Shown here one piece after another: positions 1-49,985 of a stretch of DNA of 64,000 bases. Every line of letters begins with the position of its first letter. Position 1 is the stretch's first letter. The notes beneath the pieces were generated by a model that was given only the letters and a program-made list of their open reading frames with translations, was not told the origin of the DNA and ran no database searches. Where the stretch lies: positions 48,805-112,804 of the forward strand of contig CAZNLY010000006.1 in NCBI GenBank assembly GCA_964574295.1, written 5' to 3'. This DNA comes from an uncultured Gemmatimonadaceae bacterium. Its GTDB lineage: Bacteria > Gemmatimonadota > Gemmatimonadetes > Gemmatimonadales > GWC2-71-9. The position numbers were made by a program, and so were the translations under genes.

Positions 1-319
1 CCACCACGCTCCCCGTCCCGATCCGGACCCCGTTGAGGAGGATGCTCCCCATCCCGATCAGGCAGCCGTCCTCCACCGTGCAGCCGTGCAGGATGGCCTT
101 GTGCCCCACCCCCACCCGCTCCCCGATGGTGCACGGGAACCCGGCGTCCACGTGGACGATCGTCCCGTCCTGGATGTTGGTCCGCGCCCCGATGACGATC
201 GGCGCCATGTCCCCCCGGAGAACGCTGGTGTACCAGACGCTCGATTCAGGGCCGAGGGTCACGTCGCCCATGACCACCGCGGTCTGGGCAATGAACGCGG
301 TCTTGTGAATGGATGGCAC
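1..319 (-). CDS. gamma-carbonic-anhydrase-like hexapeptide-repeat (LbH) protein, 3' end outside window
   Basis: Minus-strand translation from GTG at 319 reads VPSIHKTAFIAQTAVVMGDVTLGPESSVWYTSVLRGDMAPIVIGARTNIQDGTIVHVDAGFPCTIGERVGVGHKAILHGCTVEDGCLIGMGSILLNG. This is the YrdA/PaaY/CaiE-type hexapeptide pattern. It starts 13 nt after the kinase stop. It is absent from the ORF track because no stop lies in the window. Confidence 0.75.
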   Translation of the reverse strand, partial: MPSIHKTAFIAQTAVVMGDVTLGPESSVWYTSVLRGDMAPIVIGARTNIQDGTIVHVDAGFPCTIGERVGVGHKAILHGCTVEDGCLIGMGSILLNGVRIGTGSVV

Positions 320-331
320 AAGGGCCTCGGG

Positions 332-2353
<2,022 letters not shown>

Positions 2354-4884: not shown

Positions 4885-6873
4885 CTATTTTCCCCACGCC
4901 TTCAGGTACGCCACGATCCCGTTGTACACCGCCTCCGCGTACATCCTCTGCCCCACGGCGCTCCGGAGCGCCGCCTCCTGTTCCGGGACCGCCAGGAACA
5001 TCCCCTCGGTCAGGATGGACGGCATCCAGGTCGGCCGCACCAGCGCCAGGTCGCCGCGGCCCACGCCGAGGTCGCGGATGCCGAGCCGTGCCACGAGGGC
5101 GGCCTGCGTGGCGCGGGCCAGCGGCGCGCTGCGGGGCTGGTTGTAATAGACGCTCGTCCCGCTGTTGGTGAACGGGTTCACCCCGTCGGGCAGCGCGTTA
5201 TTGTGGATCGAGATCAGGAGGTCGGCGTTCACGCTGTCGGCGTAGATCGGCCGCCAGCTCAGGTCCACCGCGGAATCCACCGCCCGCGTCATCAGGACGG
5301 TGGCGCCGCCACCCTGCAGGAGGGCCCGCAGCCGGAGGGCCACCGCCAGGTTCGCCTCCGCCTCGCGGTAGCCGGTGGGGCCCGTGGCGCCGCCGGGGGG
5401 GTGCCCCGGATCCAGCACGATGCGCAATCCCGCGAGTGGCCTCGTGGCGTTGATCCTCGGTGGCCGACGGATCTCGAGGATGAGGTCGCTCCGGTCCCAC
5501 CGGGTCCGGTAGCCCCAGACCGGCTTGGTCAGGTCGAGGGTCAGCGTCACCTCGTCGGCCGAGGCCTGCGCCCAGGTCATCAGTTCCACCAGCGAGTCCG
5601 CCCCGCCGTAGCGCATCCAATTCACGTCCCCCGTCGCCCCGTAGAGCCGGACCGTGAGGGCGCGCTCCGTCTCGGTCACGAGGTACGGAATGCGGTTCGA
5701 GAGCGGAATGCGCAGGGTGGCACCGGTCGGGGATGGGCTCAGCGCCACGGAGCCGACCGTGGCAGTGAGCGCCGGGGTCCCCGGCGGCAGGGCATAGGCG
5801 TCGCCCGCCGGTATCCACGCGACGGAGGTCTCCGACAGCGACAGGCGCACATCCCCGTTCATCCGGCCCGACACATTGGCGCGGGTGCCCGCCGGGAAGA
5901 ACCAGTTGTAGGTGGCGCCGGGGGCCGCCCGCCCGATCGTGAGCCGGTCGGTATTGCCCTTCCCCGCCGTGTCGTCGTTCATCTCGATGACCACCGGCAG
6001 GCTGTCGAGGAGCGCCACCCGGATCGGCCATCGCACCCGGATGGTGTCGCCTCCCTTCACCGCCTCGAGGATGGGTTGCAGGGTGTCCACCCCCTCGGCC
6101 GCGCGGCGGCGGCAGCGCGGGCACCCCGCGACCACCGGCTCCGCCCCGAGGAGGGGGCCGGGGTCGCCGCCCAGGGAGCGCCCGCGGAGGAGGCCCACGT
6201 AGCGGTCGGCCCGCGCGGGGCGGGTCAGGTTGGCGGTGTCGCGATCGAAGGCGCGCACCCCCCACGGCACCTCGTCGAACCCGATCGAGTTGACCAGCGG
6301 GAAGGTGGAGCCGTCGGGCAGCAGCAACCGGAGCTCTGCCCCTTCGGCGGCGCGGACCGAGAGCGGCAGGTACTCGTCCGCCGGCCACCAGATGTTGCCG
6401 CGCGGCCGGAAGGAGAAGGTGTCCACCCAGAGGGGCGTGGTCGGTGCCGGAGCTCGGGGCGCCCGCCGCACGAGGTAGGTCAGCGAGTCGCGGGTGCCGT
6501 TGGGGCGGGTGGCCAGGAGCTGGAAGGTCATCACGCTGTCCGGCGGGAAGGGAATCCACGCCAGCCAGGCGCCGTTGGGCCAGACGCGCACCGAGTCGCC
6601 ATTGATGGTGAGGCGAGCGTCGCCGCTGCCGGTGTTCCCGAACATGAAGGAGTAGTCGCCGGCGGAGACGACGTCTCCTCTCGAGGGGTACACCACCGAG
6701 AGGGAGAGCGGCCCCGTGACCCGCGCGATCGGCGGCAGCCGTCCGGTGCTGGGATCCAGCGGCTTGGCCGGTGCCGCGGCCTTGGGCTTGGCGCGAGGCT
6801 TGGCCTGCTGGCCCTCTGCGGGTGACGCGACAGCCAAGGCAAGGAAAAGCGCGGCAAGAAGGCGTCTGGGCAT
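4885..6873 (-). CDS. N-acetylmuramoyl-L-alanine amidase (Amidase_3, AmiC-like) with long N-terminal domain
   Basis: 662 aa, ATG start, signal peptide MPRRLLAALFLALAVASPAEG. C-terminal LRIVLDPGHPPGGATGPTGYREAEANLAVALRLRALLQGGGATVLMTR...ADLLISIHNNALP...GTSVYY...LTEGMFL is the Amidase_3 signature. Confidence 0.85.
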   Translation of the reverse strand: MPRRLLAALFLALAVASPAEGQQAKPRAKPKAAAPAKPLDPSTGRLPPIARVTGPLSLSVVYPSRGDVVSAGDYSFMFGNTGSGDARLTINGDSVRVWPNGAWLAWIPFPPDSVMTFQLLATRPNGTRDSLTYLVRRAPRAPAPTTPLWVDTFSFRPRGNIWWPADEYLPLSVRAAEGAELRLLLPDGSTFPLVNSIGFDEVPWGVRAFDRDTANLTRPARADRYVGLLRGRSLGGDPGPLLGAEPVVAGCPRCRRRAAEGVDTLQPILEAVKGGDTIRVRWPIRVALLDSLPVVIEMNDDTAGKGNTDRLTIGRAAPGATYNWFFPAGTRANVSGRMNGDVRLSLSETSVAWIPAGDAYALPPGTPALTATVGSVALSPSPTGATLRIPLSNRIPYLVTETERALTVRLYGATGDVNWMRYGGADSLVELMTWAQASADEVTLTLDLTKPVWGYRTRWDRSDLILEIRRPPRINATRPLAGLRIVLDPGHPPGGATGPTGYREAEANLAVALRLRALLQGGGATVLMTRAVDSAVDLSWRPIYADSVNADLLISIHNNALPDGVNPFTNSGTSVYYNQPRSAPLARATQAALVARLGIRDLGVGRGDLALVRPTWMPSILTEGMFLAVPEQEAALRSAVGQRMYAEAVYNGIVAYLKAWGK

Positions 6874-7042: not shown

Positions 7043-8152
7043 TTGCCTAGTCCCGTGGCCTCCGCTCCCATTCACGTCTCCGTCTCCGGTCGCACCGACG
7101 TCGGCCGCACCCGCGACCACAACGAGGACACCTTCCTCGTGGCCGACCTCAGCACCGGCCAGGTCACCATCGAGCCGGGGCTCCACGAGCGTGTGGCGGG
7201 CGACCGGGGGATGCTGCTCATGGTGGCCGACGGGATGGGGGGCGCGGCCGCCGGCGAACTGGCCAGCGCGCTGGCCGCCGAGACGATTCACGCGCACCTG
7301 GCGGCCACCTGGTCGAAGGAATCGGAGTCGGGCGGGGAGCGGTTCGCGTTTCGAATGCGCGAGGCGGTGGAGGAGGCCAACGCCCGGATCCACGCCTACG
7401 CCCTGGAGCACACCGACGTGCGCGGGATGGGAACGACGGTGACCGCCGCCGGTGTGTACGGCCCCGACCTCTACATCGCGCAGATCGGCGACAGCCGGGC
7501 GTACCTCGTCCGCCAGGGCCAGGCCACCCTCCTCACCAAGGATCAGTCCCTGACGCAGCGGCTCGTGGACGCCGGCGAGCTCACGGAGGAGGAGGCCGAG
7601 CGCAGCGAGCGGCGAAACATCATCCTCCAGGCGCTGGGACCAGACCCGCAGGTCCGGGTGGACCTGACCCACGAGCCGCTCCGCCGCGGCGACCTCCTCA
7701 TCCTCTGCAGCGACGGGCTCAGCAACCAGGTCAAGCGCGAGGACTTCTCGTCGCTGGCGGCCTCCACCCCCGACCTCGACGCCCTCTGCGCCGCCTTGAT
7801 CTCCGTGGCCAACGAACGGGGCGGCCCCGACAACATCACGGTCGTCGCGGCCCGGTTCGAGGGTCCCGGCCTCCCCCTGGGCGACGTGAGCGAGCCGCCG
7901 GGCCATCACGTCTATGCCCTCCCGGGCGACGCGCCCCTGGAGGAGGACTTCCGGACCGGATACTCCACCGGTGAGATCCGCCCCGCCGATCGCGTGGGGA
8001 TCACCTACCCCGCCCCGGCCTCGGCCGTGGCCGCCGTCGCCACCGACCGCGCCATTCCGGCCCCACCCGTCCGCCGGCGCCTTCCGGTGGCGCTGCTCAG
8101 CAGCATCATCATCGGCGCCGCCATCCTGCTCTACTTCCTGCTGACCCGATGA
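7043..8152 (+). CDS. PP2C-family Ser/Thr protein phosphatase with C-terminal TM anchor
   Basis: GRTDVGRTRDHNEDTF, MVADGMGGAAAGELAS, ILCSDGLS, GGPDNITVV motifs. C-terminal LPVALLSSIIIGAAILLYFLL. Start is TTG 7043 or GTG 7055. The stop overlaps the next ATG (ATGA). Confidence 0.9.
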   Translation: MPSPVASAPIHVSVSGRTDVGRTRDHNEDTFLVADLSTGQVTIEPGLHERVAGDRGMLLMVADGMGGAAAGELASALAAETIHAHLAATWSKESESGGERFAFRMREAVEEANARIHAYALEHTDVRGMGTTVTAAGVYGPDLYIAQIGDSRAYLVRQGQATLLTKDQSLTQRLVDAGELTEEEAERSERRNIILQALGPDPQVRVDLTHEPLRRGDLLILCSDGLSNQVKREDFSSLAASTPDLDALCAALISVANERGGPDNITVVAARFEGPGLPLGDVSEPPGHHVYALPGDAPLEEDFRTGYSTGEIRPADRVGITYPAPASAVAAVATDRAIPAPPVRRRLPVALLSSIIIGAAILLYFLLTR

Positions 8153-9558
8153 CCCCGCGCCTGGCCATCCTCTCCGGCGCGCGCGCCGGGGCAGTGGAGC
8201 CGCTGCCGGGGGCGGTGGCGAGCATCGGGCGCCACGCCACCTGCCAGGTCCGGCTCGACCCCGACGCCGACGTGCAGGTGTCCAGCCGGCATGCGGTCAT
8301 CCAGCGCCGGGACGCCGCCTGGGTGGTGCGCGACCTCGGCAGCGCCCAGGGCACCTACGTGAACGGGCAGCGGATCGAGGCGGAGCAGCCGCTCAATGAC
8401 GGCGACGTGCTGCGGCTGGGGGCGGAGGGCCCGGAACTCCAATTCCTCCTCTCCGATCGCGCCGTCGTGGCCGCGCCGAGCGCGGCGCCGACGGCGGCGC
8501 AGCCGGGCAGGCCGACGCTGTCGCCCGAGGAACTGGCGCGGATCCTCGAGGAGGAACAGGCGGGGCTGCTGGCGCGGGAGATGGCGGCCGCCGCTCGCCG
8601 CCGCCAGCTGGTGCGGATTGCCGTCGGCACCCTCATGGCGATCACCGTGGTGACGACGGCGGTGGTGCTGGGCCGGCGCGCCGCGCTGAGGCGCGCGGAA
8701 ATCGAGGCGAGCACCGCGGAGCTGGCCCGGGCCGACAGCCTCATGGCGTCGGTCGCGACGCTCCGCGCCACCACCCCGGCCATGCAGGCGGCCCTCGACT
8801 CGGCCCGGCAGTCGGCCCGCCGGCTGCGGATGGCCCTCGACTCCTCCGGCCACAGGCCGGAGGCGATCCGCCCACTGATGACGCGACTCGATTCCGCCGT
8901 GGGGCGGCAGCGCGTGATCGCGGCTGCGGCGGCGTTCGACGCCCCGGCGATCGCGGCGCCGAGCGCCTTCGGGGTGGCGTTCGTGGTGGCCCAGTATGCC
9001 GACGGGAGCGAGGTGACCGCCACCGCCTCGGCGGTCCGCCGCGACGGCACCGGCGTGGTGCTGCTCACCTCGCGCGCGGTGGGAATCAGCGCCGCCTCGA
9101 TCCCGCCGGATCGGGTGCTCGTGCGCTACCCGGGCGTGGCGGGCGCGCTCTCCGCCACGGTGCTCGCGACGCACCTCACCGAAGACCTGGCGCTGCTGCG
9201 CGTGGCGCAGCGCGGCGGGTTGCCGGTGGTCCAGGGGCTCGGATGGAAGGACCCGCCACTGGCAGCCGGCGCGCCCGTGGCCGTGACGGCGTACGCCGCG
9301 CCGGCGCCCGCCGGCGACGGTGACTGGGCCAAGGCCTCCGTCGTGTCCAGCACGACCACCGGCACGGCGGTTCGGGTGACCAAGGAATTCATCACGGTGG
9401 ATGGGTGGGGGGCGGAGCTGGCGGCGGGGGCGCCGGTCTTCGACGCCGAGGGGCTGGTGGCGGGGGTGGTCTCGTCGGCGGCGCCCTCGAGCGGCGGGCG
9501 GCTCTACGACGTGGTGCCGGTCATCTACGCGTTGGAGCTGCTCGACCAGCTGCAGTAA
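8149..9558 (+). CDS. FHA domain - TM - trypsin-like (apparently non-catalytic) domain protein
   Basis: N-terminal FHA (SIGRHATCQVRLDPDADVQVSSRHAVIQRRDAAWVVRDLGSAQGTYVNGQRI). TM IAVGTLMAITVVTTAVVLG. C-terminal HtrA/trypsin_2-like blocks LLTSRAV, DLALLRV and GAELAAGAPVFD. Confidence 0.8.
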   Translation: MTPRLAILSGARAGAVEPLPGAVASIGRHATCQVRLDPDADVQVSSRHAVIQRRDAAWVVRDLGSAQGTYVNGQRIEAEQPLNDGDVLRLGAEGPELQFLLSDRAVVAAPSAAPTAAQPGRPTLSPEELARILEEEQAGLLAREMAAAARRRQLVRIAVGTLMAITVVTTAVVLGRRAALRRAEIEASTAELARADSLMASVATLRATTPAMQAALDSARQSARRLRMALDSSGHRPEAIRPLMTRLDSAVGRQRVIAAAAAFDAPAIAAPSAFGVAFVVAQYADGSEVTATASAVRRDGTGVVLLTSRAVGISAASIPPDRVLVRYPGVAGALSATVLATHLTEDLALLRVAQRGGLPVVQGLGWKDPPLAAGAPVAVTAYAAPAPAGDGDWAKASVVSSTTTGTAVRVTKEFITVDGWGAELAAGAPVFDAEGLVAGVVSSAAPSSGGRLYDVVPVIYALELLDQLQ

Positions 9559-9590
9559 ACCAAGCTCGACTTCCTCAGGCCATCGGGGTG

Positions 9591-9710
9591 GCTTCACCCC
9601 GTATCCCCCGCTCCAGCACGTCCACCTCACCCCCTGACCCCCTCTCCGCGAAACGGAGAGGGGGAATGACCTGACCTCCTGTCCCCCCTCCGGCAAGCGG
9701 AGAGGGGGGG
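9591..9710. repeat. 120-nt double-hairpin repeat (family 2, intergenic copy E)
   Basis: Hairpins CCCCCTCTCCG-cgaaa-CGGAGAGGGGG (9638-9664) and CCCCCCTCCG-gcaag-CGGAGAGGGGGG (about 9684-9710). About 90 percent identical over the roughly 90-nt core to 10073..10192. Lies between the convergent stops at 9558 and 9712. Confidence 0.75.
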
Positions 9711-9711
9711 C

Positions 9712-11145
9712 TCAGGCCGTGTGCCGACGAATCCAGCGGGCCGCCGCCTCCTGCATCAGCCGCTGGCGATGCCAAGCCACCAGCACCGGGGCCGTGCCCG
9801 GCAGCTGGGCCCCGAGCCGCGGGTGCGCGAAGAGCACCATCAGGTCGGCACCTGCCGCCTGGCCCAGCGCCGCGAGCGACGCGGCCCCAAAACCCGACCG
9901 CCCCTTCGACGCCCTCGGCTCCGCGAACGCCAGCACCACCCGGCTCCCCCCCTTCCCCAGCGGCACGCCGGCGGCGCGCAGCGCCTTCTCCGTCCAATCG
10001 TTCGGCGAGGCGGGCCAGGCGCCGCCCTGGTCATCGTCCACCACGATGAGCTCGATCGGAGCGCGGAGGCGGGCCTCACCCCCCGGCCCCCTCTGCGACT
10101 CGTCCACCTCACCCCCTGGCCCCCTCTCCGTGAAACGGAGAGGGGGAATGACCTCACCTCCTGTCCCCCTCTCCGCACGGCGGAGAGGGGGGACTGCTGC
10201 GAGGGTCCGCTGATAGCGCGCAACGGCGTCCGCGATCAGCGCCTCGGTCAACAAACCGCTGCGTAGCGCCTCGACGATCGCCCCGTGCTCCGCGACGGGA
10301 TCCGCCGGATAGCAGAGCACGTCGCATCCCGCCGCGAGGGCGCGGACGGCCGGCAGCGGTCCCGGCGCCCGGACGGCCGCGCCCATCATGAGCGCGTCGG
10401 TCACGATCAGGCCGTCGAAGCCGAGGTCGTGGCGGAGCGTGCGGAGGATCGGGGCCGAGAAGGTGGCCGGCGTGCCGCTGGGGTCGAGCGCCGGCACGCT
10501 CAGGTGCCCGGTCATGACCGCCGCCACGCCCGCCTCGATGCCCTGGCGGAAGGGGACGAGGTCCGTTGCCTCCAAGATTGCCGCGTCGGCCGCCACCACG
10601 GGGACCTCGTCGTGGCTGTCCCTCTTGGTGCGCCCGTGCCCCGGAAAGTGCTTGATGCAGGCCAGCGCCCCCGCGTGCTGGCAGGCCCGGACCCAGGTGG
10701 CCACGGCGCGGCCCACCGCGTCCGGGTCCGCCCCGAAGGACCTGGTCTGCACGATCGGGTTGTCGGGCTCGACGTCGAGGTCGGCGTCGGGGGCCAGCAC
10801 CCAGTTGATGCCGAGGGACCGCGCCTCGCGGGCCGTGGTGGCCGCGGCACATCGAATGGCGTCGGGATCGTGGAGGCTGGCGAGTGCCGCGGGCGGAGGA
10901 AACTCGGTGAGGCCGGGAAACTGCTGCCCGGCCCCGCGCTCAAGGTCGGCGGCGAGCAGGAGGGGGCGGCCCGCGCGGTCCACCAGCTCGGCGGTGAGCC
11001 GGGCCACCGCCTCGGGCCGGCCGCCGAAGAAGATGAATCCGCCCGCCCCGAACTCGAGCGCCGCGGCGATGGTGGCGGCCTCGTGTCCGAAGCCCGTGTC
11101 GTCCCGCCAGCGCAGCGCCGGCAGGAGGAGGCGGCCCGGGATCAC
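9712..11145 (-). CDS. nagZ: beta-N-acetylhexosaminidase NagZ (GH3) with C-terminal accessory domain
   Basis: GH3 blocks GGFIFFG, LLLAADLERGAGQQF, GINWVLAPDADLDVEPDNPIVQTRSFG, CIKHFPGHGRTKRDSHDE, GLIVTDALMMGA. Proposed start is GTG 11145, overlapping the anmK stop (GTGA). The upstream 84 aa of the track ORF is an R/G/P-rich run-on. Confidence 0.85.
   Translation of the reverse strand: MIPGRLLLPALRWRDDTGFGHEAATIAAALEFGAGGFIFFGGRPEAVARLTAELVDRAGRPLLLAADLERGAGQQFPGLTEFPPPAALASLHDPDAIRCAAATTAREARSLGINWVLAPDADLDVEPDNPIVQTRSFGADPDAVGRAVATWVRACQHAGALACIKHFPGHGRTKRDSHDEVPVVAADAAILEATDLVPFRQGIEAGVAAVMTGHLSVPALDPSGTPATFSAPILRTLRHDLGFDGLIVTDALMMGAAVRAPGPLPAVRALAAGCDVLCYPADPVAEHGAIVEALRSGLLTEALIADAVARYQRTLAAVPPLRRAERGTGGEVIPPLRFTERGPGGEVDESQRGPGGEARLRAPIELIVVDDDQGGAWPASPNDWTEKALRAAGVPLGKGGSRVVLAFAEPRASKGRSGFGAASLAALGQAAGADLMVLFAHPRLGAQLPGTAPVLVAWHRQRLMQEAAARWIRRHTA
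10073..10192. repeat. 120-nt double-hairpin repeat (family 2, copy F) embedded in frame in nagZ
   Basis: Same element and same orientation as 9591..9710. Hairpins CCCCCTCTCCG-tgaaa-CGGAGAGGGGG and CCCCCTCTCCG-cacgg-CGGAGAGGGGG. Translated in the nagZ frame as PPLRRAERGTGGEVIPPLRFTERGPGGEVDESQRGPGGEA. Confidence 0.75.
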
Positions 11146-12245
11146 GGTGGGGTGATGGAGCCGAGGACGCGAGGGCCGCGTGCCCCGGTGGCGGCGGGGA
11201 CGTTGCCCGGCTGACCGTGCAGCGTGAGGTACCCCAGGAGCGCGAAGGCCACCGCCTCCTTGGCGTCGCCGTCGAAGTAGAGCTCGTCGAAGCGCCGGAG
11301 CGTCCGGGGCGCCAGCCGCCGCGCGAGCGCCGCCATGAGGCCGGGGTGATGCACGCCGCCCCCCGAGGCCACGACCTCGACGGCGCCGGGCGCCCACCGG
11401 GCCACCGCGCCCGCCACGGTCCGGGCGGTCAGCTCCACCGCGGTGGCCACGCCGTCGGCGCCGGGGGCCCGGAGCGCCAGGGCCTGCGCGTACTGGGTGC
11501 CGAACTTCTCCCGGCCGGTGCTCTTGGGCGGGGGCGCGGAAAAGAAGGGGTCGGCGAGCAATTCGGCGAGCAGCGCCTCGTCCACCCGCCCACGCGCGGC
11601 GAGCAGCCCGTCCCGGTCCATGGCGAGCCCCGGATCGGCCAGGTGCGAGGTGGCGTCAATCAACGCCACCCCGGGGCCGGTGTCGAACGCCAGGGCCCCG
11701 GCCTCCCGCCCGCCGGCGGGGACGAGCGTCAGGTTGGCCATCCCACCGAGATTGAGCAGGACGCGGTCCCGGGCCTCGTCGGCAAAGAGGAGGAGGTCGG
11801 CCATCGGCACCAGCGGGGCGCCCTGGCCGCCCGCGGCCACGTCCCGCGCGCGGAAGCCGCTCACCACCCGGGTGCCGAACGCCTCCGCCAGCACCGCCGG
11901 CTCGCCCAGCTGCCAGGACACCAGCGGCGGCTCGTGCCAGACGGTCTGCCCGTGAAAGGCGATGCCGTCCAGCGCGTCGGGCCGCACTCCCGCCGCGTGG
12001 AGCACCGCCTGCACGGCGTCCACCGCCCACTCGGCGATCCGCACATGCAGCCGAGCCAGCGCCGGCGCGGCGGCCCGCCCCTCCAGCCCGGCCTTGAGTT
12101 CGGCGCGTTCCTCGTGGTCGTACGGCCGCGAGGCGAAGGCCACGAGCTCGGCGCGCGTGGGACCCTGGAACCGCACCAGCGCGGCGTCCATCCCGTCGAG
12201 CGAGGTGCCCGACATGAGCCCGACGATGAGCGAGGGCCGCTCCAT
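11142..12245 (-). CDS. anmK: anhydro-N-acetylmuramic acid kinase
   Basis: MERPSLIVGLMSGTSLDGMDAALV N-terminus, later LNLGGMANLT and VASGGGVHHPGLM. ATG 12245 shares one nt with the murQ stop (TGATG). Confidence 0.9.
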   Translation of the reverse strand: MERPSLIVGLMSGTSLDGMDAALVRFQGPTRAELVAFASRPYDHEERAELKAGLEGRAAAPALARLHVRIAEWAVDAVQAVLHAAGVRPDALDGIAFHGQTVWHEPPLVSWQLGEPAVLAEAFGTRVVSGFRARDVAAGGQGAPLVPMADLLLFADEARDRVLLNLGGMANLTLVPAGGREAGALAFDTGPGVALIDATSHLADPGLAMDRDGLLAARGRVDEALLAELLADPFFSAPPPKSTGREKFGTQYAQALALRAPGADGVATAVELTARTVAGAVARWAPGAVEVVASGGGVHHPGLMAALARRLAPRTLRRFDELYFDGDAKEAVAFALLGYLTLHGQPGNVPAATGARGPRVLGSITPP

Positions 12246-19438: not shown

Positions 19439-19528
19439 GGACTTGAGAACCTGGAAGGGAGAAGAGAGAAAAGAGGAGGGAGAAAGGAGGGGCGGAAGGA
19501 GAAAGGAGAAAGGAGGGGTCGCGTGGGG
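19438..19528. repeat. repeat family 1, copy B (purine-rich arm only)
   Basis: GGGACTTGAGAACCTGGAAGGGAGAAGAGAGAAAAGAGGAGGGAGAAAGGAGGGGCGGAAGGAGAAAGGAGAAAGGAGGGG. The internal 31-mer is near-identical to the reverse complement of the right arm of copy A. Confidence 0.65.
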
Positions 19529-35034: not shown

Positions 35035-35631
35035 GTGAACTGCCCATCTCGAACGCCCCCGGGCCCGCGCGCCGGGTTCACGCTGGTGGAGATGCTGATC
35101 GTGGTGATCATCATCGCGATCACCTCCGCCATCGCGTTCCCCAAGATCAACGTGTCGCGCATCCGGTCGAAGGCGGCCATCACCACCCTCGGCACCACGA
35201 TGCTGGCCATCCAGCGCGACGCCATCGCCAAGCAGCACAACGTCCTCGTGCTGGTGGACTCGGTGAACGCCCGGCTCCGGGTGGCCTACGACTCGACCAA
35301 CGACCTCCGGATCACGACGGGGGAGCGGGTGCGGGCGGTGGACCTGGGCGAGGAGATCGTCTTCGGCCGGCCGTCGGGCGTGCCGGCACGGCCCTTCGGG
35401 ACCAACCCGATCAACTTCGTGCAGCGGGAGCCCACCACCAACCTCCCGGTCATCATCCTCTACCGGAACGGCAGCGCCTCCGAGGCCGGCGGGCTCTACC
35501 TGAGCACCGTCAAGGCCATGGCCGGGCTGCCGGGCCACCAGAACGAGACCTGGGCCATGGAAATGGTCCGGGCCACGGGACGCGCGGAATGGATGCGCTG
35601 GAACGGCACCGGCTGGGTGCGGGGGTTCTGA
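35035..35631 (+). CDS. prepilin-type protein, GspH/FimT/FimU-like pseudopilin (module 1)
   Basis: GAGGA then GTG 35035 (longest ORF starts at GTG 34987). Class III signal ...GPRAG|FTLVEMLIVVIIIAITSAIAFP with Glu+5. 198 aa. The stop shares one nt with the next ATG. Confidence 0.8.
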   Translation: MNCPSRTPPGPRAGFTLVEMLIVVIIIAITSAIAFPKINVSRIRSKAAITTLGTTMLAIQRDAIAKQHNVLVLVDSVNARLRVAYDSTNDLRITTGERVRAVDLGEEIVFGRPSGVPARPFGTNPINFVQREPTTNLPVIILYRNGSASEAGGLYLSTVKAMAGLPGHQNETWAMEMVRATGRAEWMRWNGTGWVRGF

Positions 35632-36029
35632 TGCGGACCAACGAACGCGGCTTCACGCTCATCGAGATGGCCATCGCCCTCACGATCCTGTCGATCGTGC
35701 TCGTGGCCATTCCCTACGCCGGCCTCCGCTTCACCAAGGCCGTCTCCACCAACCGGGTGCGCAACGAGGCGAACGCGATCGCCGACGCGTGGATCGCGCA
35801 GTGCCGCTCGCTGCCCAACTACGCCGCCCTCGACTCCACCAACGGCCGGTGCCGCGGCACGGTGACCGGGCTCGGCACGTACAACTTCACCCGGACCACC
35901 ACCGTGACCGGCGACGCCACCCTTTCCGGCGTGGCCGACTCCCTCAACAACTACAAGCGGATCTCCGTCGTCGTCACCTCGACCTCGCTCGCCTCGCCGG
36001 TCAAGCGGACGGTGACGGTGGCCAAGTGA
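35631..36029 (+). CDS. prepilin-type protein, PilV/GspI-sized minor pilin (module 1)
   Basis: MRTNERG|FTLIEMAIALTILSIVLV, 132 aa. Found as the C-terminal part of track ORF 34764..36029. Confidence 0.8.
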   Translation: MRTNERGFTLIEMAIALTILSIVLVAIPYAGLRFTKAVSTNRVRNEANAIADAWIAQCRSLPNYAALDSTNGRCRGTVTGLGTYNFTRTTTVTGDATLSGVADSLNNYKRISVVVTSTSLASPVKRTVTVAK

Positions 36030-36043
36030 GGAGGGAGCCCCCC

Positions 36044-37225
36044 ATGCGCACCCGCCGCGGCGTGACCCTGGTCGAGATGCTGATCGCCATCACCGTCTTC
36101 ACGATGGTGCTGGCGGCCACCCTCGGGTTCCTCTCCCGCATCACGCGCGGGCTCGACCGGAACGCCAGTGACATGGGCATGCTGCAGAACCTGACCTTCG
36201 CCAGCTCGATCCTGCAGGAGGAGCTGCGGATGGCCGGGGCCAACGTGCCCTTCAAGCAGCCGGTCATCATCTACGCCGGCGCCAACTCCTTCAGCTTCAA
36301 CGCCGACTACGCCTCGAACGTGGACAGCCTGTACGCGGTGTACCTGCTGCCCAACCTGCCGGCCGGGCAGCGCAACGCGATGATCCCGGCCGACCGGATC
36401 GCCATCCCGGGGTCGAGCCCGTCGTTCAGCTACCCCGACTCGACGTACATGGCCGACGGCGGCGCCGCGATGCCGAGCCCCGCCGAGACGATCACCTGGT
36501 TCTTTGCCCTCGACACCAGCACCACGGCGGGCAACGACTACGTCCTCTTCCGGCAGGTCAACGACCAGCCGCCCGAGGTGGCCATCCGCAACGTCATCCA
36601 GACCCCGGGCCGGAACTTCTTCCGCTACTACTACAAGCGGATTCCCGCCTCGGGCACCTCGTCCTCCTCGCTCGATACCGTGCCGACCGCCTGGATGCCG
36701 CTCCGGCACACCCAGGGCGTCCACGGCATGCCGTCGGACACGGCGGCGGCGGCGCGGGTGGACAGCCTGGCCCAGGTGGAGGTGGCCTTCACGGTCACGA
36801 ACGCCCTCACCGGCGCCAACCAGCGGACGCGGGCCATCTCGTTCATCGTGCCGATGCCGAACATGGGCACCAAGAAGGTCACGAGCTGCGGGGACATGCC
36901 CCTCTTCGGGTCGGGCATCACCACCACCTGGCAGATCAACACCGCCGCCTCCCCGCCCGACACCTTCATGCTCATCCGGTGGAACCGCGCCACCGACGAG
37001 ACTGGCGGCGAGTCCGACGTGGTGGCGTACATCATCTGGCGCCGCCTCCTGAGCGAGACGACGTGGGACGAGCCGCTGGCGGCGGTCCCGGCGGGTGCCG
37101 CCAATCCCAGCTTTGCCGACCAGACGGCCAATCCCGGCACCCAGTACACCTACGCCGTGGCGGCCCAGGATTGCACCCCGACGCTGTCGACGATGTCGAC
37201 GGCCTCACCCCCCGCCTCCCCGTGA
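36044..37225 (+). CDS. prepilin-type protein, PilW/GspJ-like, with C-terminal FN3-like domain (module 1)
   Basis: GAGGAGGGA SD then ATG 36044. MRTRRG|VTLVEMLIAITVFTMVLAA. The C-terminal region LIRWNRATDETGGESDVVAYIIWRR...ANPGTQYTYAVAAQD follows the fibronectin type III pattern. Confidence 0.8.
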   Translation: MRTRRGVTLVEMLIAITVFTMVLAATLGFLSRITRGLDRNASDMGMLQNLTFASSILQEELRMAGANVPFKQPVIIYAGANSFSFNADYASNVDSLYAVYLLPNLPAGQRNAMIPADRIAIPGSSPSFSYPDSTYMADGGAAMPSPAETITWFFALDTSTTAGNDYVLFRQVNDQPPEVAIRNVIQTPGRNFFRYYYKRIPASGTSSSSLDTVPTAWMPLRHTQGVHGMPSDTAAAARVDSLAQVEVAFTVTNALTGANQRTRAISFIVPMPNMGTKKVTSCGDMPLFGSGITTTWQINTAASPPDTFMLIRWNRATDETGGESDVVAYIIWRRLLSETTWDEPLAAVPAGAANPSFADQTANPGTQYTYAVAAQDCTPTLSTMSTASPPASP

Positions 37226-41258: not shown

Positions 41259-41825
41259 ATGCCGGCCATGCGGCACGACGCCCGGGGCTTCACGCTCGCC
41301 GAGATGATGATCGTGATCGTCGTCCTCGGCCTGGCGACGATGATGATGGTGCCGCGGTTCCGCGCCTCGAGCAAGACCAAGGCGCGGATGGCGGCCACCC
41401 AGCTGACCGCGGACCTCGAGCTGGCCCGGGCCAAGGCGATGGCCCGCCGGGCCACCGTCCGCGTGGTGTTCAATACCGCCGCCAACAGCTACACCGGCTA
41501 CCTCGACTTCGACCGCGACGGGGTCATCGGGCAGACGCTGGCCGAGCGGGACTCGCTCAACGCCTTCGGCACCCGGACCCTCCCCAACGGGGCGGTCTTC
41601 GGGCGGGCGGGCCAGGCGGACATCACCGACTTTGCCGGCTCGGGGGGGATCACCTTCCCGACGCCGCAGATCAATTTCGACGGGCGCGGCCTCACCACCC
41701 CCTTCGGCACCCGCGGCGTCGTGTATGTGCAGCGCACCGATGACTCCGCCGCCGTGGCGGCGGTGACGGTGTCGGGTGCGGGGGGCGTCCGGCTGTGGAC
41801 CACCGAGGGAGGGTACTGGCGATGA
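41259..41825 (+). CDS. prepilin-type protein, GspH/FimT/FimU-like pseudopilin (module 2)
   Basis: ATG 2 nt after the upstream TAG. MPAMRHDARG|FTLAEMMIVIVVLGLATMMMVP. 188 aa. The stop overlaps the next ATG (ATGA). Confidence 0.8.
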   Translation: MPAMRHDARGFTLAEMMIVIVVLGLATMMMVPRFRASSKTKARMAATQLTADLELARAKAMARRATVRVVFNTAANSYTGYLDFDRDGVIGQTLAERDSLNAFGTRTLPNGAVFGRAGQADITDFAGSGGITFPTPQINFDGRGLTTPFGTRGVVYVQRTDDSAAVAAVTVSGAGGVRLWTTEGGYWR

Positions 41826-42193
41826 CCCGGCAGCGCGAAGGCGGCTTCACCCTGATCTCGGTGATCATCGCCGTGGTCATCCTCTCGGTCGGCATCATGG
41901 CCCTGGGCAAGACCCAGGGGATGCTGATCCGGGCCCAGGCCACGAACGCGGAGCGGAACGTGGCGCTCGGCATCGCCCGCAACTACGTGGAGGAGGTGCG
42001 GTCGCGCACCGCCGTGCCCGCCTCGGAGCCCTCGGCCCGCGTCGATGCAACTGGCGCCCTCTCAGGCACGGGCGCCTACCGGCGCACCCTCGACGTGGCC
42101 GACCTGGGCAACAACCTCTACCGCGCCACCTGCAACGTGACGTACCCGCGCGGCACCGTGCCCGTGTCCATCGTCACCCTCATCTACCGGTGA
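41822..42193 (+). CDS. prepilin-type protein, PilV/GspI-sized minor pilin (module 2)
   Basis: MTRQREGG|FTLISVIIAVVILSVGIMAL (Ser in place of Glu+5), 123 aa. Confidence 0.75.
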   Translation: MTRQREGGFTLISVIIAVVILSVGIMALGKTQGMLIRAQATNAERNVALGIARNYVEEVRSRTAVPASEPSARVDATGALSGTGAYRRTLDVADLGNNLYRATCNVTYPRGTVPVSIVTLIYR

Positions 42194-42198
42194 CCGCC

Positions 42199-43122
42199 AT
42201 GCGCCTTCACGCCCCCACCGGCCGGGCGGGCTTCACCCTGGTCGAGCTGATGATCGCGATGATCGCCGGCCTGGTGGTCCTGGCCGCGGCCACCGCCGCC
42301 GTGGCCTCCACCTGGCGGGGCCTCTCCGCCGGCCGCATGCGCGAAGGCATCGAACGGAACGCCCGCTTCATCAACGAGGCGCTCCAGCGCGACCTCTCCG
42401 AGACCGGCGTGGACCTGGCCTCCAGCGTCCGCTTCGGGAGCCTCTCGGTGCGGGGCGACACCATCGTCGTCCTGAGCGTGCCCTACACCAACGGTGTGGC
42501 GGCCGCGGCGCACACCTTCCAGTACGGGGGCGCCCCGCTCGCGCCGGGCACCGGCAGCTGCGGCACCTGGTGCGTGGACGTGGACACGGTGGCCTGGGAC
42601 CTCGCGGCGAACGACGTCGCAGTCCTGCAGTCGAGCAACGAGCGGCGCCTGATCCAGGTCACGAACGTGACGCGGAGCGGGGCCATTGCCTCGATCACCT
42701 TCCGGTCCGACACGACGCTCCTGCAGCACGAGGCGGCGTACGCCCGGAACCTCCAGCTGGCCAACAACGGCACCGCCGTGACCCGGATGAAGTTCGTGGC
42801 CTACTGGGTGGACAACGGGCGGCTGATGCGCGCCGAGCGGATGAATCCGGACGGCACGCCGGCGGGAGAACTGATTGCGACGGGGGTGGACAGCATTCGC
42901 GTCCGCCTGGTGTTCAGCGACGGCAGCGAGGCCACCACCGCCAACCCGACGGACGCGAGCGGCAACAACGATTGGGACGACATCCTGGCGGTGCGGGTGT
43001 TCGCCACCCTCCGGTCCGACCCGACCGACCTCCGCCTCAACGGCGGGCAGCCGGTCACGCGGAACTTCGGCTGGTGGTTTGCGCCCCGGAACCTGCGCTA
43101 CGAGAAGAACCGCATCAACTGA
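42199..43122 (+). CDS. prepilin-type protein, PilW/GspJ-like (module 2)
   Basis: MRLHAPTGRAG|FTLVELMIAMIAGLVVLAAATAA, 307 aa. No FN3-like tail. Confidence 0.8.
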   Translation: MRLHAPTGRAGFTLVELMIAMIAGLVVLAAATAAVASTWRGLSAGRMREGIERNARFINEALQRDLSETGVDLASSVRFGSLSVRGDTIVVLSVPYTNGVAAAAHTFQYGGAPLAPGTGSCGTWCVDVDTVAWDLAANDVAVLQSSNERRLIQVTNVTRSGAIASITFRSDTTLLQHEAAYARNLQLANNGTAVTRMKFVAYWVDNGRLMRAERMNPDGTPAGELIATGVDSIRVRLVFSDGSEATTANPTDASGNNDWDDILAVRVFATLRSDPTDLRLNGGQPVTRNFGWWFAPRNLRYEKNRIN

Positions 43123-49804: not shown

Positions 49805-49834
49805 CGCCACCTCCTTCGCGCGGCGCGACCTGAG

Positions 49835-49958
49835 CAAGGAGAAAGGGACTTGGAGAAAGGAGGGGCGGAAGGAGAAAGGAGACAGGTGGCCGCCCCGGCG
49901 CCCCTCGTCTCTCCTTCCGCTTTCCGCCCCTCCTTGGCCCTTGTCCCTTTCGCTTTCC
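49835..49958. repeat. repeat family 1, copy C (long imperfect palindrome) between secY and adk
   Basis: Left arm AAGGAGAAAGGGACTTGGAGAAAGGAGGGGCGGAAGGAGAAAGGAGAC. Right arm GTCTCTCCTTCCGCTTTCCGCCCCTCCTTGGCCCTTGTCCCTTTCGCTTTCC. An adjacent 7-bp hairpin CCTCACG-ttgccac-CGTGAGG (49957-49977) lies just downstream of the secY stop. Confidence 0.7.
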
Positions 49959-49985
49959 TCACGTTGCCACCGTGAGGAACCGTGT

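Follow-up and report, generated by a model that had tools for sequence, protein, structure and literature searches.

The present study examined a 64,000-nt stretch of DNA (hereafter referred to as the window) from an uncultured Gemmatimonadaceae bacterium (contig CAZNLY010000006.1, positions 48,805 to 112,804), in which two co-oriented repeats of approximately 120 nt occupy positions 9591-9710 (copy 1) and 10073-10192 (copy 2). The former lies between two genes, and the latter is read in frame by nagZ, the predicted product of which is a two-domain GH3 beta-N-acetylglucosaminidase (NagZ-like). An earlier note on this DNA, made from the sequence alone, had described both copies correctly in position and orientation, and had offered two explanations, namely, that a mobile element was inserted into a tolerant linker or that a coding module left a non-coding relic. 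We herein describe the architecture of the repeat and its distribution, and weigh the explanations for its presence in nagZ.

Two repeats at the nagZ locus

The nagZ gene (9712-11145, minus strand, 477 aa; Pfam PF00933, E 3.6e-65) stands last in the peptidoglycan-recycling cluster murQ-anmK-nagZ, and its start is overlapped by the stop codon of anmK (11142-12245, minus strand), which encodes an anhydro-N-acetylmuramic acid kinase (Pfam PF03702). An FHA/trypsin-like gene on the plus strand (8149-9558) converges on nagZ. Copy 1 is intergenic and, as had been noted earlier, lies between the convergent stops, one base past the nagZ TGA (9712-9714, minus strand) and 32 nt short of the FHA-gene stop (9556-9558, plus strand). 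The 120 nt of copy 2 begin at the third base of codon 318 and preserve the nagZ frame, which is open throughout; the 40 codons that the earlier note assigned to this copy were confirmed as residues 319-358, with the same peptide (PPLRRAERGTGGEVIPPLRFTERGPGGEVDESQRGPGGEA). Its placement between the GH3 TIM-barrel and the C-terminal alpha/beta domain, together with the nagZ label itself, was borne out by the PF00933 match and by the structural matches of an AlphaFold2 (AF2) model. The reading frame of copy 1 is also open and is the same as that of copy 2.

A global alignment of the two copies gave 104 identities over 122 columns (85.2%, with 4 gap columns), and 65 of 68 nt were identical in a core region (9619-9686 versus 10101-10168), for which the previous estimate of approximately 90% was slightly conservative. 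The likeness of copy 1 to copy 2 ends at the element boundaries. The two 10- to 11-bp hairpins previously attributed to each copy were recovered as 11-bp stems (CCCCCTCTCCG/CGGAGAGGGGG) at three sites (9638-9664, 10120-10146, and 10165-10191); the fourth, at 9680-9709 in copy 1, is degenerate. The pattern CCCTCTCC-N(3-9)-GGAGAGGG had three matches in the 64 kb, all in the two copies, against a shuffle expectation of 0.

Architecture of the repeat unit

Read on the minus strand, the unit is laid out as CCCCCTCTCC-loop-GGAGAGGGGG-N3-GGGGGTGAGG. Behind each hairpin comes a conserved 13-nt tail (NCNGGNGGTGAGG) that mirrors the right arm of the hairpin and represents a third block beyond what the earlier note described. 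Placed antiparallel to the purine arm, this block yields G.G, A.A, and T.A triads at 10 of 10 positions; triplex potential was judged by base-triad rules, and nearest-neighbour folding treats the hairpins only. A purpose-written finder for C-block, G-block, and mirror-G-block motifs, which was run on the window and on 20 shuffles of it, returned exactly three sites in the 64 kb, all on the minus strand (10152-10192, 10107-10146, and 9625-9664), and no site in any of the 20 shuffles.

Two of these sites are perfect 10-triad motifs with 10/10 duplex pairs and 10/10 triads, one being unit B2 of copy 2 (10107-10146, CCCCCTCTCC-GTTTCAC-GGAGAGGGGG-CCA-GGGGGTGAGG, 0 mismatches) and the other being in copy 1 (9625-9664, CCCCCTCTCC-GTTTCGC-GGAGAGGGGG-TCA-GGGGGTGAGG), and the triplex-motif 40-mer reads CCCCCTCTCCGTTTCACGGAGAGGGGGCCAGGGGGTGAGG. 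The third site is unit B1 of copy 2 (10152-10192, CCCCCCTCTCC-loop-GGAGAGGGGG-ACA-GGAGGTGAGG), with 10/10 duplex pairs and 9/10 triads. On the same strand, copy 2 also contains the partial unit B3 (10074-10096), a purine mirror pair, GCAGAGGGGG-CCG-GGGGGTGAGG, without its C-rich partner and with one mismatch to the unit pattern, and copy 1 contains a degenerate first unit (9668-9710, CCCCCCCTCTCCGCTTGCCGGAGGGGGGACAGGAGGTCAGG), which was read from the sequence and falls under the thresholds of the finder. Two full units 45 nt apart and one partial unit, a purine mirror pair without a C-block, were counted in each 120-mer; the finder result and the partial unit thus indicate that each 120-mer is a compound of three units.

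In a comparison of 12 units, the ten core pairs were invariant and the two loop-proximal pairs covaried (AU<->GC and CG<->UA), and the residues encoded at the covarying pairs shifted as well (HMV, HIM, and RRA). These compensatory pair changes, taken together with the shifting residues, indicate that the conserved unit is constrained as a nucleic acid rather than as a peptide. On a single strand, the mirror block may fold back on the hairpin as G.G-C, A.A-T, and T.A-T triads, and triplexes may form in vivo. An anti-Shine-Dalgarno or G-quadruplex reading of the tail was dropped because the mirror-repeat and triplex architecture accounts for its conservation. An Rfam scan of 9000-10800 at E values of up to 10 returned noise (the best score was 27 bits, for a microRNA model, versus a threshold of 72 bits), and a promoter and terminator scan at the repeats found no promoter-like or terminator-like site.

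Units in nagZ orthologues

Among 120 NagZ orthologues (57-73% identity, Gemmatimonadales where named), the conserved linker of approximately 77 aa from LCYPxD to VVDDD ranges over 75-81 aa and is without a unit in all those at 68% identity or less and in most of the closer ones. The alignment of orthologues, which the earlier note had proposed as a check, therefore identifies the segment of the window as an indel in a conserved linker. Since the distant orthologues are unit-free and retain this linker, the repeat is an insertion into nagZ and not the relic of a coding module, and the second of the two earlier explanations was also contradicted by the abundance of the unit in non-coding DNA and by the varied frames and strands in which it is read elsewhere.

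Units are confined to one subclade of orthologues at 65% identity or more, in which unit B is present in nine proteins (the window included) and an inverted unit A (PHPLSPSPASGEG), situated just upstream of the unit B site, in seven. The peptide of unit B, V-PPLH[MI][VM]ERGTGGE-V, spans 14 codons, and neither its codon position nor its frame differs among the nine proteins; unit B1 of the window has the site and frame of unit B in L127-L130 and L132. In L129, unit B is followed by a partial unit like B3. The number of units at the nagZ site ranges between 0 and 3 among close orthologues, with 0-2 in close relatives and three in the window.

The NagZ protein

The AF2 model of NagZ has a predicted local distance difference test score (pLDDT) of 87.8, and TM-scores of 0.83-0.84 to 3SQL, 3SQM, and 6K5J and of approximately 0.73-0.79 to the entries for NagZ from Bacillus subtilis. 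The only segment with a pLDDT below 50 is residues 324-355 in the element peptide, and the other parts of the C-terminal domain were modelled well. The peptide of copy 2 is rich in Pro, Gly, Glu, and Arg and is predicted to be a disordered surface loop. P0014, an orthologue without the element, has a helix (329-341) and a strand (344-346), both modelled with high confidence; they are absent from the window NagZ, which lacks the corresponding native segment (...GQSxAIADRLLAQGLxRGxxP). On the basis of these models, the three-unit array appears to have taken the place of a native helix and strand, and the description of the site as a tolerant linker was accordingly half right: the site accepted the array, but native secondary structure was supplanted.

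The window NagZ retains all residues that do not vary over 25 aligned orthologues, the KHFPGHG stretch and the DAL motif among them. An identical 477-aa product was called on at least 23 contigs, and a 720-nt stretch over both copies was identical in six of six contigs, two of which end in copy 1 and cover approximately 640 nt; the six assemblies are independent and differ in sample and pipeline (ENA, NCBI, and Logan). The differences in the variant P0125, which is 99% identical, are all outside the element. The nagZ allele is thus not an artefact of assembly, and its protein is presumably made and active. The two contigs that end early, L125 and L126, are independent assemblies encoding P0001 and stop 93-94 nt past the nagZ stop, within copy 1, as expected when an assembler meets a repeat that is present elsewhere in the genome.

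The element-free orthologues have a G-rich variable stretch, GPRGGGAESAGQS, ahead of the native helix (P0014 320-346 versus window 318-358), the DNA of which loosely resembles a decayed purine block. The presence of repeat sequence at this site may go back further than the recognisable units imply.

Distribution of the unit

When one genome per species was scanned for the purine half of the unit, GGAGAGGGGNNCNGGNGGTGAGG, at least 145 instances were found; these lay in at least 120 genome stretches, which represent a dozen or more phyla. The matches listed include Chloroflexota, Gemmatimonadota, Acidobacteriota, Bacteroidota (with cultured Hymenobacter strains), Planctomycetota, Armatimonadota, and Desulfobacterota, and further listed hosts are SAR324, Bdellovibrionota, Ignavibacteriae, Melainabacteria, Spirochaetes, and one gammaproteobacterium. 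Nearly all of the listed instances have CCCCCTCTCC and a loop of variable length upstream, and their flanks are unrelated. Across genomes, the unit is dispersed and multi-copy and occurs in both orientations, with some inverted pairs.

The unit pattern was also present in 38 IMG/VR contigs (L137-L174). Eight of the 38 share a common portal-like open reading frame (ORF) and seven share another large ORF, which is probably a phage structural gene. Several carry two to four copies; in L164, four copies were located at 788-810, 1330-1352, 5581-5603, and 7870-7892. No protein family recurred within approximately 4 kb of the unit across the 120 cellular loci beyond a maximum of seven loci, and those families were of a common housekeeping type. 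All-against-all clustering of ORFs from 158 loci, in a search for a linked transposase, recovered only common housekeeping families and phage structural genes.

In L131, from a close relative, the unit and its spacer form a tandem array with a 121-nt period downstream of a sodium:solute symporter (SSF) gene (5674-5984, 2.6 copies, 98% identical), and arrays of the unit with periods of 106-166 nt are found in other phyla. An inverted solo copy is present in L131 at 6389-6431, 400 nt beyond the array. In L098, a deltaproteobacterial metagenome-assembled genome, the unit recurs every 120 nt in five copies on the plus strand (approximately 4917-5540); periods of 106 nt were observed in L008 and L077, and a period of 166 nt in L054. 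The viral contig L151 has a unit with a left flank that matches that of L098.

An exhaustive phmmer search with the 40-aa peptide returned three short ORFs at E values of 0.001 or less, which are likely spurious calls over repeats, and was uninformative on coding hosts. String searches for the 10-mers and peptides of the unit in the bacterial literature gave no match.

Units within other genes

In the 120 listed loci, 37 open frames run through a unit, and seven of these were checked by Pfam, with matches for six (in L022, L023, L046, L118, L105, and L070, from four phyla). Two units lie between Radical_SAM and HemN_C in a HemN-like radical SAM gene, one is inside HypF_C_2 of HypF, and one is inside the COX15/CtaA domain of CtaA (heme A synthase). 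In GcvPB, a unit between domains has undergone tandem expansion to four copies of the 14-aa PPLHSVESPPVVSA. Units were also found within a PMT_2 glycosyltransferase ORF and a DNA methylase ORF. With at least six further in-frame cases of this unit in a sample of 120 loci, and with in-frame repeats being documented in other families (PMC3184786), the earlier opinion that either explanation would be unusual was overstated.

Translation of the purine strand of the unit gives ERGxGGEV, and that of the opposite strand gives LTPRPPL, PHPPAPSP, or SPPGPLS. Five of the six frames through the consensus purine arm and tail contain no stop, the exception being GG-TGA-GG, and the tolerance of the unit in genes may be attributed to these stop-free frames combined with selection for lengths divisible by three. 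Such units yield spurious "hypothetical proteins", break assemblies, and inflate the linker diversity of protein families, and, thus, need to be known to annotators.

Loss of the neighbouring symporter gene

Seven relatives (L128, L129, L130, L131, L132, L175, and L176) share the gene order ggt / murQ anmK nagZ SSF-symporter / FHA gene, and those that carry SSF include outgroups at 68 and 59% identity. No SSF homologue was detected by tblastn across the 64 kb of the window, and region 9559-9711 does not contain the gene. Since SSF follows nagZ in relatives and outgroups, its loss in the window is derived, and it adjoins the repeat. The repeat may have promoted this deletion, and the position of the loss agrees with the instability described for this class. 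The copies are found at a locus with raised local variability, as seen in the 0-3 units of nagZ, the loss of SSF, and the array in L131, which is a qualitative comparison without control loci. The spacer between copy 1 and the FHA-gene stop was considered as a relic of the start of SSF and rejected, with alignment scores of 9-14 versus a null mean of 12.2.

Relation to known repeat classes

The E. coli repeat BoxC has been described anew, first as the PIT element and later as TM_ECO; it belongs to the G/C-rich class II intrastrand triplex motifs (Bergler, 1992; Hoyne and Maher, 2000, as cited in Holder et al., 2015, NAR 43:10126, PMC4666352). In the intrastrand triplex class, a pyrimidine stem is followed on one strand by the purine stem that pairs with it and then by another purine stem, a mirror of the first; the stems are 6-15 nt long and the second loop is short (PMC4666352). 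A pyrimidine stem, purine stem, and mirror purine stem with allowed triads were found in the same layout in the window. TM_ECO, with the consensus CCCTCNCCC-N3-6-GGGNGAGGG-N3-GGGNGAGGG, has 3610 occurrences in 262 proteobacterial genomes, and other G/C-rich motifs are abundant in cyanobacteria; the 23 copies in Escherichia coli K-12 are all intergenic, with five sites being inverted pairs (PMC4666352). In E. coli, these elements showed neither promoter nor terminator activity, and no association with mobile elements or phages was found; their loci were more rearranged among strains than control loci (PMC4666352).

The unit of the window aligned with TM_ECO type B sequences over 29-30 of 34-36 nt (z 6.7-9.2). 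It shares with TM_ECO the C-rich stem, the first loop of variable length, the purine stem, the 3-nt second loop (often CCG), and the mirror purine stem, as well as the core words CCCTCTCC, GGAGAGGG, and GGGGTGAGG. Both are multi-copy and are found in both orientations and in inverted pairs without a linked transposase, and both are accompanied by local deletions and variable neighbourhoods. In contrast, the G-runs are 2+5 / 5+2 with 10 triads in the window and 3+3 with 9 triads in TM_ECO. TM_ECO has been reported in Proteobacteria, with no link to phages found by Holder et al., whereas the present unit occurs in Gemmatimonadota, a dozen or more other phyla, and viral contigs; moreover, it is also translated within genes, as is copy 2 in nagZ, in contrast to the motif in E. 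coli K-12, which is always intergenic. Copy 2 had no blastn match in E. coli genomes, for which the short query and the low-complexity filter are probably responsible. Judging from its sequence, the unit of the window may be regarded as a member of the BoxC/PIT/TM class, but not as TM_ECO in the strict sense.

In-frame fusions of small repeats with genes have been reported for Rickettsia palindromic elements (RPEs) and others (Ogata, 2000; Delihas, 2007; Croucher, 2011, reviewed in PMC3184786). Copy 2 resembles RPEs in being a short palindromic repeat that lies in frame in a conserved enzyme, forms a tolerated surface segment, and varies in presence among orthologues: the ORF is conserved, there is no stop or frameshift, and orthologues lack the insert. 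This likeness is one of common behaviour and not of common ancestry. RPEs have an unrelated host range, and their sequence family has no relation to that of the present unit, which is also smaller (42-45 nt) and modular and which supplanted native secondary structure in the window rather than merely being added to it.

Repetitive extragenic palindromic (REP) elements and REPINs are palindromes tagged with GTAG/CGTC that are mobilised by REP-associated tyrosine transposases (RAYTs) (PMC3733652). The unit is similar to these elements in that it consists of GC-rich palindromes of 20-40 nt, usually intergenic, often in inverted doublets, and between convergent genes. It differs in its near-identical sequence across phyla, in the obligatory third mirror block, which is missing in REPs, and in offering no evidence of a RAYT. 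The tetranucleotide CGTC precedes both copies in the window (9619-9622 and 10101-10104); however, no conservation of a GTAG/CGTC tag was found across the at least 145 instances of the family.

Origin of the two copies

Taken together, these results make it likely that both 120-mers are compound copies of a non-autonomous G/C-rich repeat of the BoxC/PIT/TM class that spreads without a transposase, with copy 2 being an in-frame insertion in nagZ. Copy 1 would then be an ordinary intergenic copy, and copy 2 would go back to a unit inserted between the two domains of nagZ in an ancestor of one subclade of Gemmatimonadales, after which the site repeatedly gained, lost, and decayed units. In the genome of the window, the array would have expanded to three units, and the neighbouring native helix and strand would have been lost. 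The insert may have survived because it is divisible by three in length, carries no stop in the frame used, and would form a disordered surface loop. Spread and expansion are most likely due to slippage during replication, to template switching, or to recombination where the DNA is prone to very stable hairpins or to triplexes, without a dedicated transposase, and this instability plausibly had a part in the loss of SSF next to nagZ.

Several observations weigh against this explanation. The unit occupies just two loci in the 64-kb window, 482 nt apart, and the strict TM_ECO consensus has 0 matches in the window, because of the G-runs described above. The full 120-nt compound was not found elsewhere in metagenome contigs: its inner junction, GGTSAGGTCATTCCCCCTCTCC, was found at two unrelated loci, which have only that string in common, and the whole 120-mer is therefore unseen elsewhere. 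On a simple neighbour-joining tree of NagZ, units A and B are patchy and sister sequences differ, which is explained either by an inverted pair that was inserted once, long ago, and then lost many times or by repeated insertion or conversion at a hot spot. Furthermore, copy 1 lies in a 129-nt segment that is bracketed by the 8-nt direct repeat CTCAGGCC (9574-9581, plus strand, and 9711-9718), the second occurrence of which includes the nagZ stop; the chance expectation of approximately 0.02 is a rough, post hoc estimate. This repeat may be a target duplication or microhomology, would suit a transposition-like insertion, and is the chief point for such an event. Lastly, the single strand of TM_ECO forms a stable triplex in vitro, but none was detected in duplex DNA or in vivo (PMC4666352), and, thus, triplex formation may be irrelevant, in which case the conservation of the class would lack an explanation.

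The direct repeat around copy 1 is also the main reason for considering an element of the REP/REPIN or MITE (miniature inverted-repeat transposable element) type, moved in trans by a RAYT/IS200-like Y1 or other transposase, once into nagZ and once past its stop. The dispersed, multi-copy occurrence of the unit in both orientations, the A/B pairs in nagZ orthologues, which resemble REPIN doublets, and the contig breaks within copy 1 are all compatible with such a process. However, the check for target-site duplications, suggested by the earlier note, was positive only near copy 1: no direct repeat was found flanking copy 2, and no consistent duplication was found among the orthologues at the B units of nagZ. 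The ends of the 120-mer are not mutual inverted repeats, no transposase is nearby, the GTAG/CGTC tag is not conserved in the family, and no protein family recurs near the unit in the 120 cellular loci. The unit is near-identical over a dozen or more phyla, which sets it apart from REP-RAYT pairs; these are, as far as is known, lineage-specific. Moreover, no association was found by Holder et al. between their motif and mobile elements in general with mobile elements (PMC4666352). We consider this alternative to be unlikely; of the earlier proposal of a REP/MITE-like insertion, the insertion of a repeat element into a coding sequence stood, whereas the element is not MITE-like and carries no classical REP tag.

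It is far less probable that the copies are a functional cis element, which would either promote regulated recombination or slippage that yields a NagZ without the C-terminal domain (...GEATPMA*) or tune expression as an mRNA structure. The two direct repeats, 482 nt apart, bracket exactly the region coding for the C-terminal domain, the frame after crossover meets a TGA five codons beyond the element, and TM motifs have been tied to local rearrangement (PMC4666352). Nevertheless, the unrearranged form was found in all six contigs, neither a promoter-like nor a terminator-like site was found at the repeats, PIT elements lack such activities in E. coli, and purine-motif triplexes do not form in RNA (Holder et al., PMC4666352).

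The possibility that PPLxxxERGxGGEV is a genuine module of NagZ and copy 1 a decayed coding fragment, for example from a partial gene duplication, is largely refuted and retains very little probability. Copy 1 is still open in the frame of copy 2, and unit B is conserved in frame in nine proteins; however, the module is missing from most orthologues, including all distant ones, the similarity between the copies does not extend past the element, elsewhere the unit lies mostly in non-coding DNA, and other proteins read it in different frames or on the opposite strand, the covariation preserves the hairpin and not the residues, and the segment is predicted to be disordered. An artefact of assembly or binning that generated a chimeric ORF is conceivable for metagenome assemblies, in which repeats are readily mis-assembled, but may practically be dismissed in view of the identical sequence over both copies in six independent assemblies.

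Implications

The repeat class itself and the in-frame insertion of small repeats of other families (PMC3184786) were already known. In the literature consulted on this class, the 10-triad variant, its near-identity across phyla and phage contigs, and its frequent translation in conserved enzymes have not been described, and they connect two literatures that have been treated separately, one of which concerns the remodelling of proteins by in-frame repeat insertions. The nagZ locus provides a natural series of empty, one-, two-, and three-unit alleles at one codon position, together with an adjacent gene loss. This series may be used as a test bed for instability caused by the motif, and may reveal how much secondary structure an enzyme trades for a repeat-encoded loop.

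A much bolder proposal, which we regard as doubtful, is that the 10-triad motif is a single, actively spreading DNA parasite or a structure-driven self-copying repeat that has reached a dozen or more phyla and phages almost without change, routinely supplied disordered linker or loop cassettes to essential enzymes (NagZ, HypF, the HemN-like protein, GcvPB, and CtaA), and led to the loss of nearby genes. If correct, the motif would act generally, across phyla, to drive innovation in protein loops and deletions in its vicinity, and phages might be its vehicles, although the sample is small.

Other features of the window

A second, unrelated repeat family is present at 2430-2540, 19445-19516, and 49832-49960, in the form of long imperfect palindromes with polypurine/polypyrimidine arms based on GGAGAAAGGAGGGGCGGAAGGAGAAAGGAG; palindromes of this type are unusual for a genome of such high G+C content. 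In two regions, 35074-36094 and 41286-42264, six positions carry GGCTTCACCCTG.TCGAG.TG, which encodes GFTL(I/V)E. We take this peptide to be the prepilin-type N-terminal signature, which suggests the presence of two clusters of pilin or pseudopilin genes in these regions.

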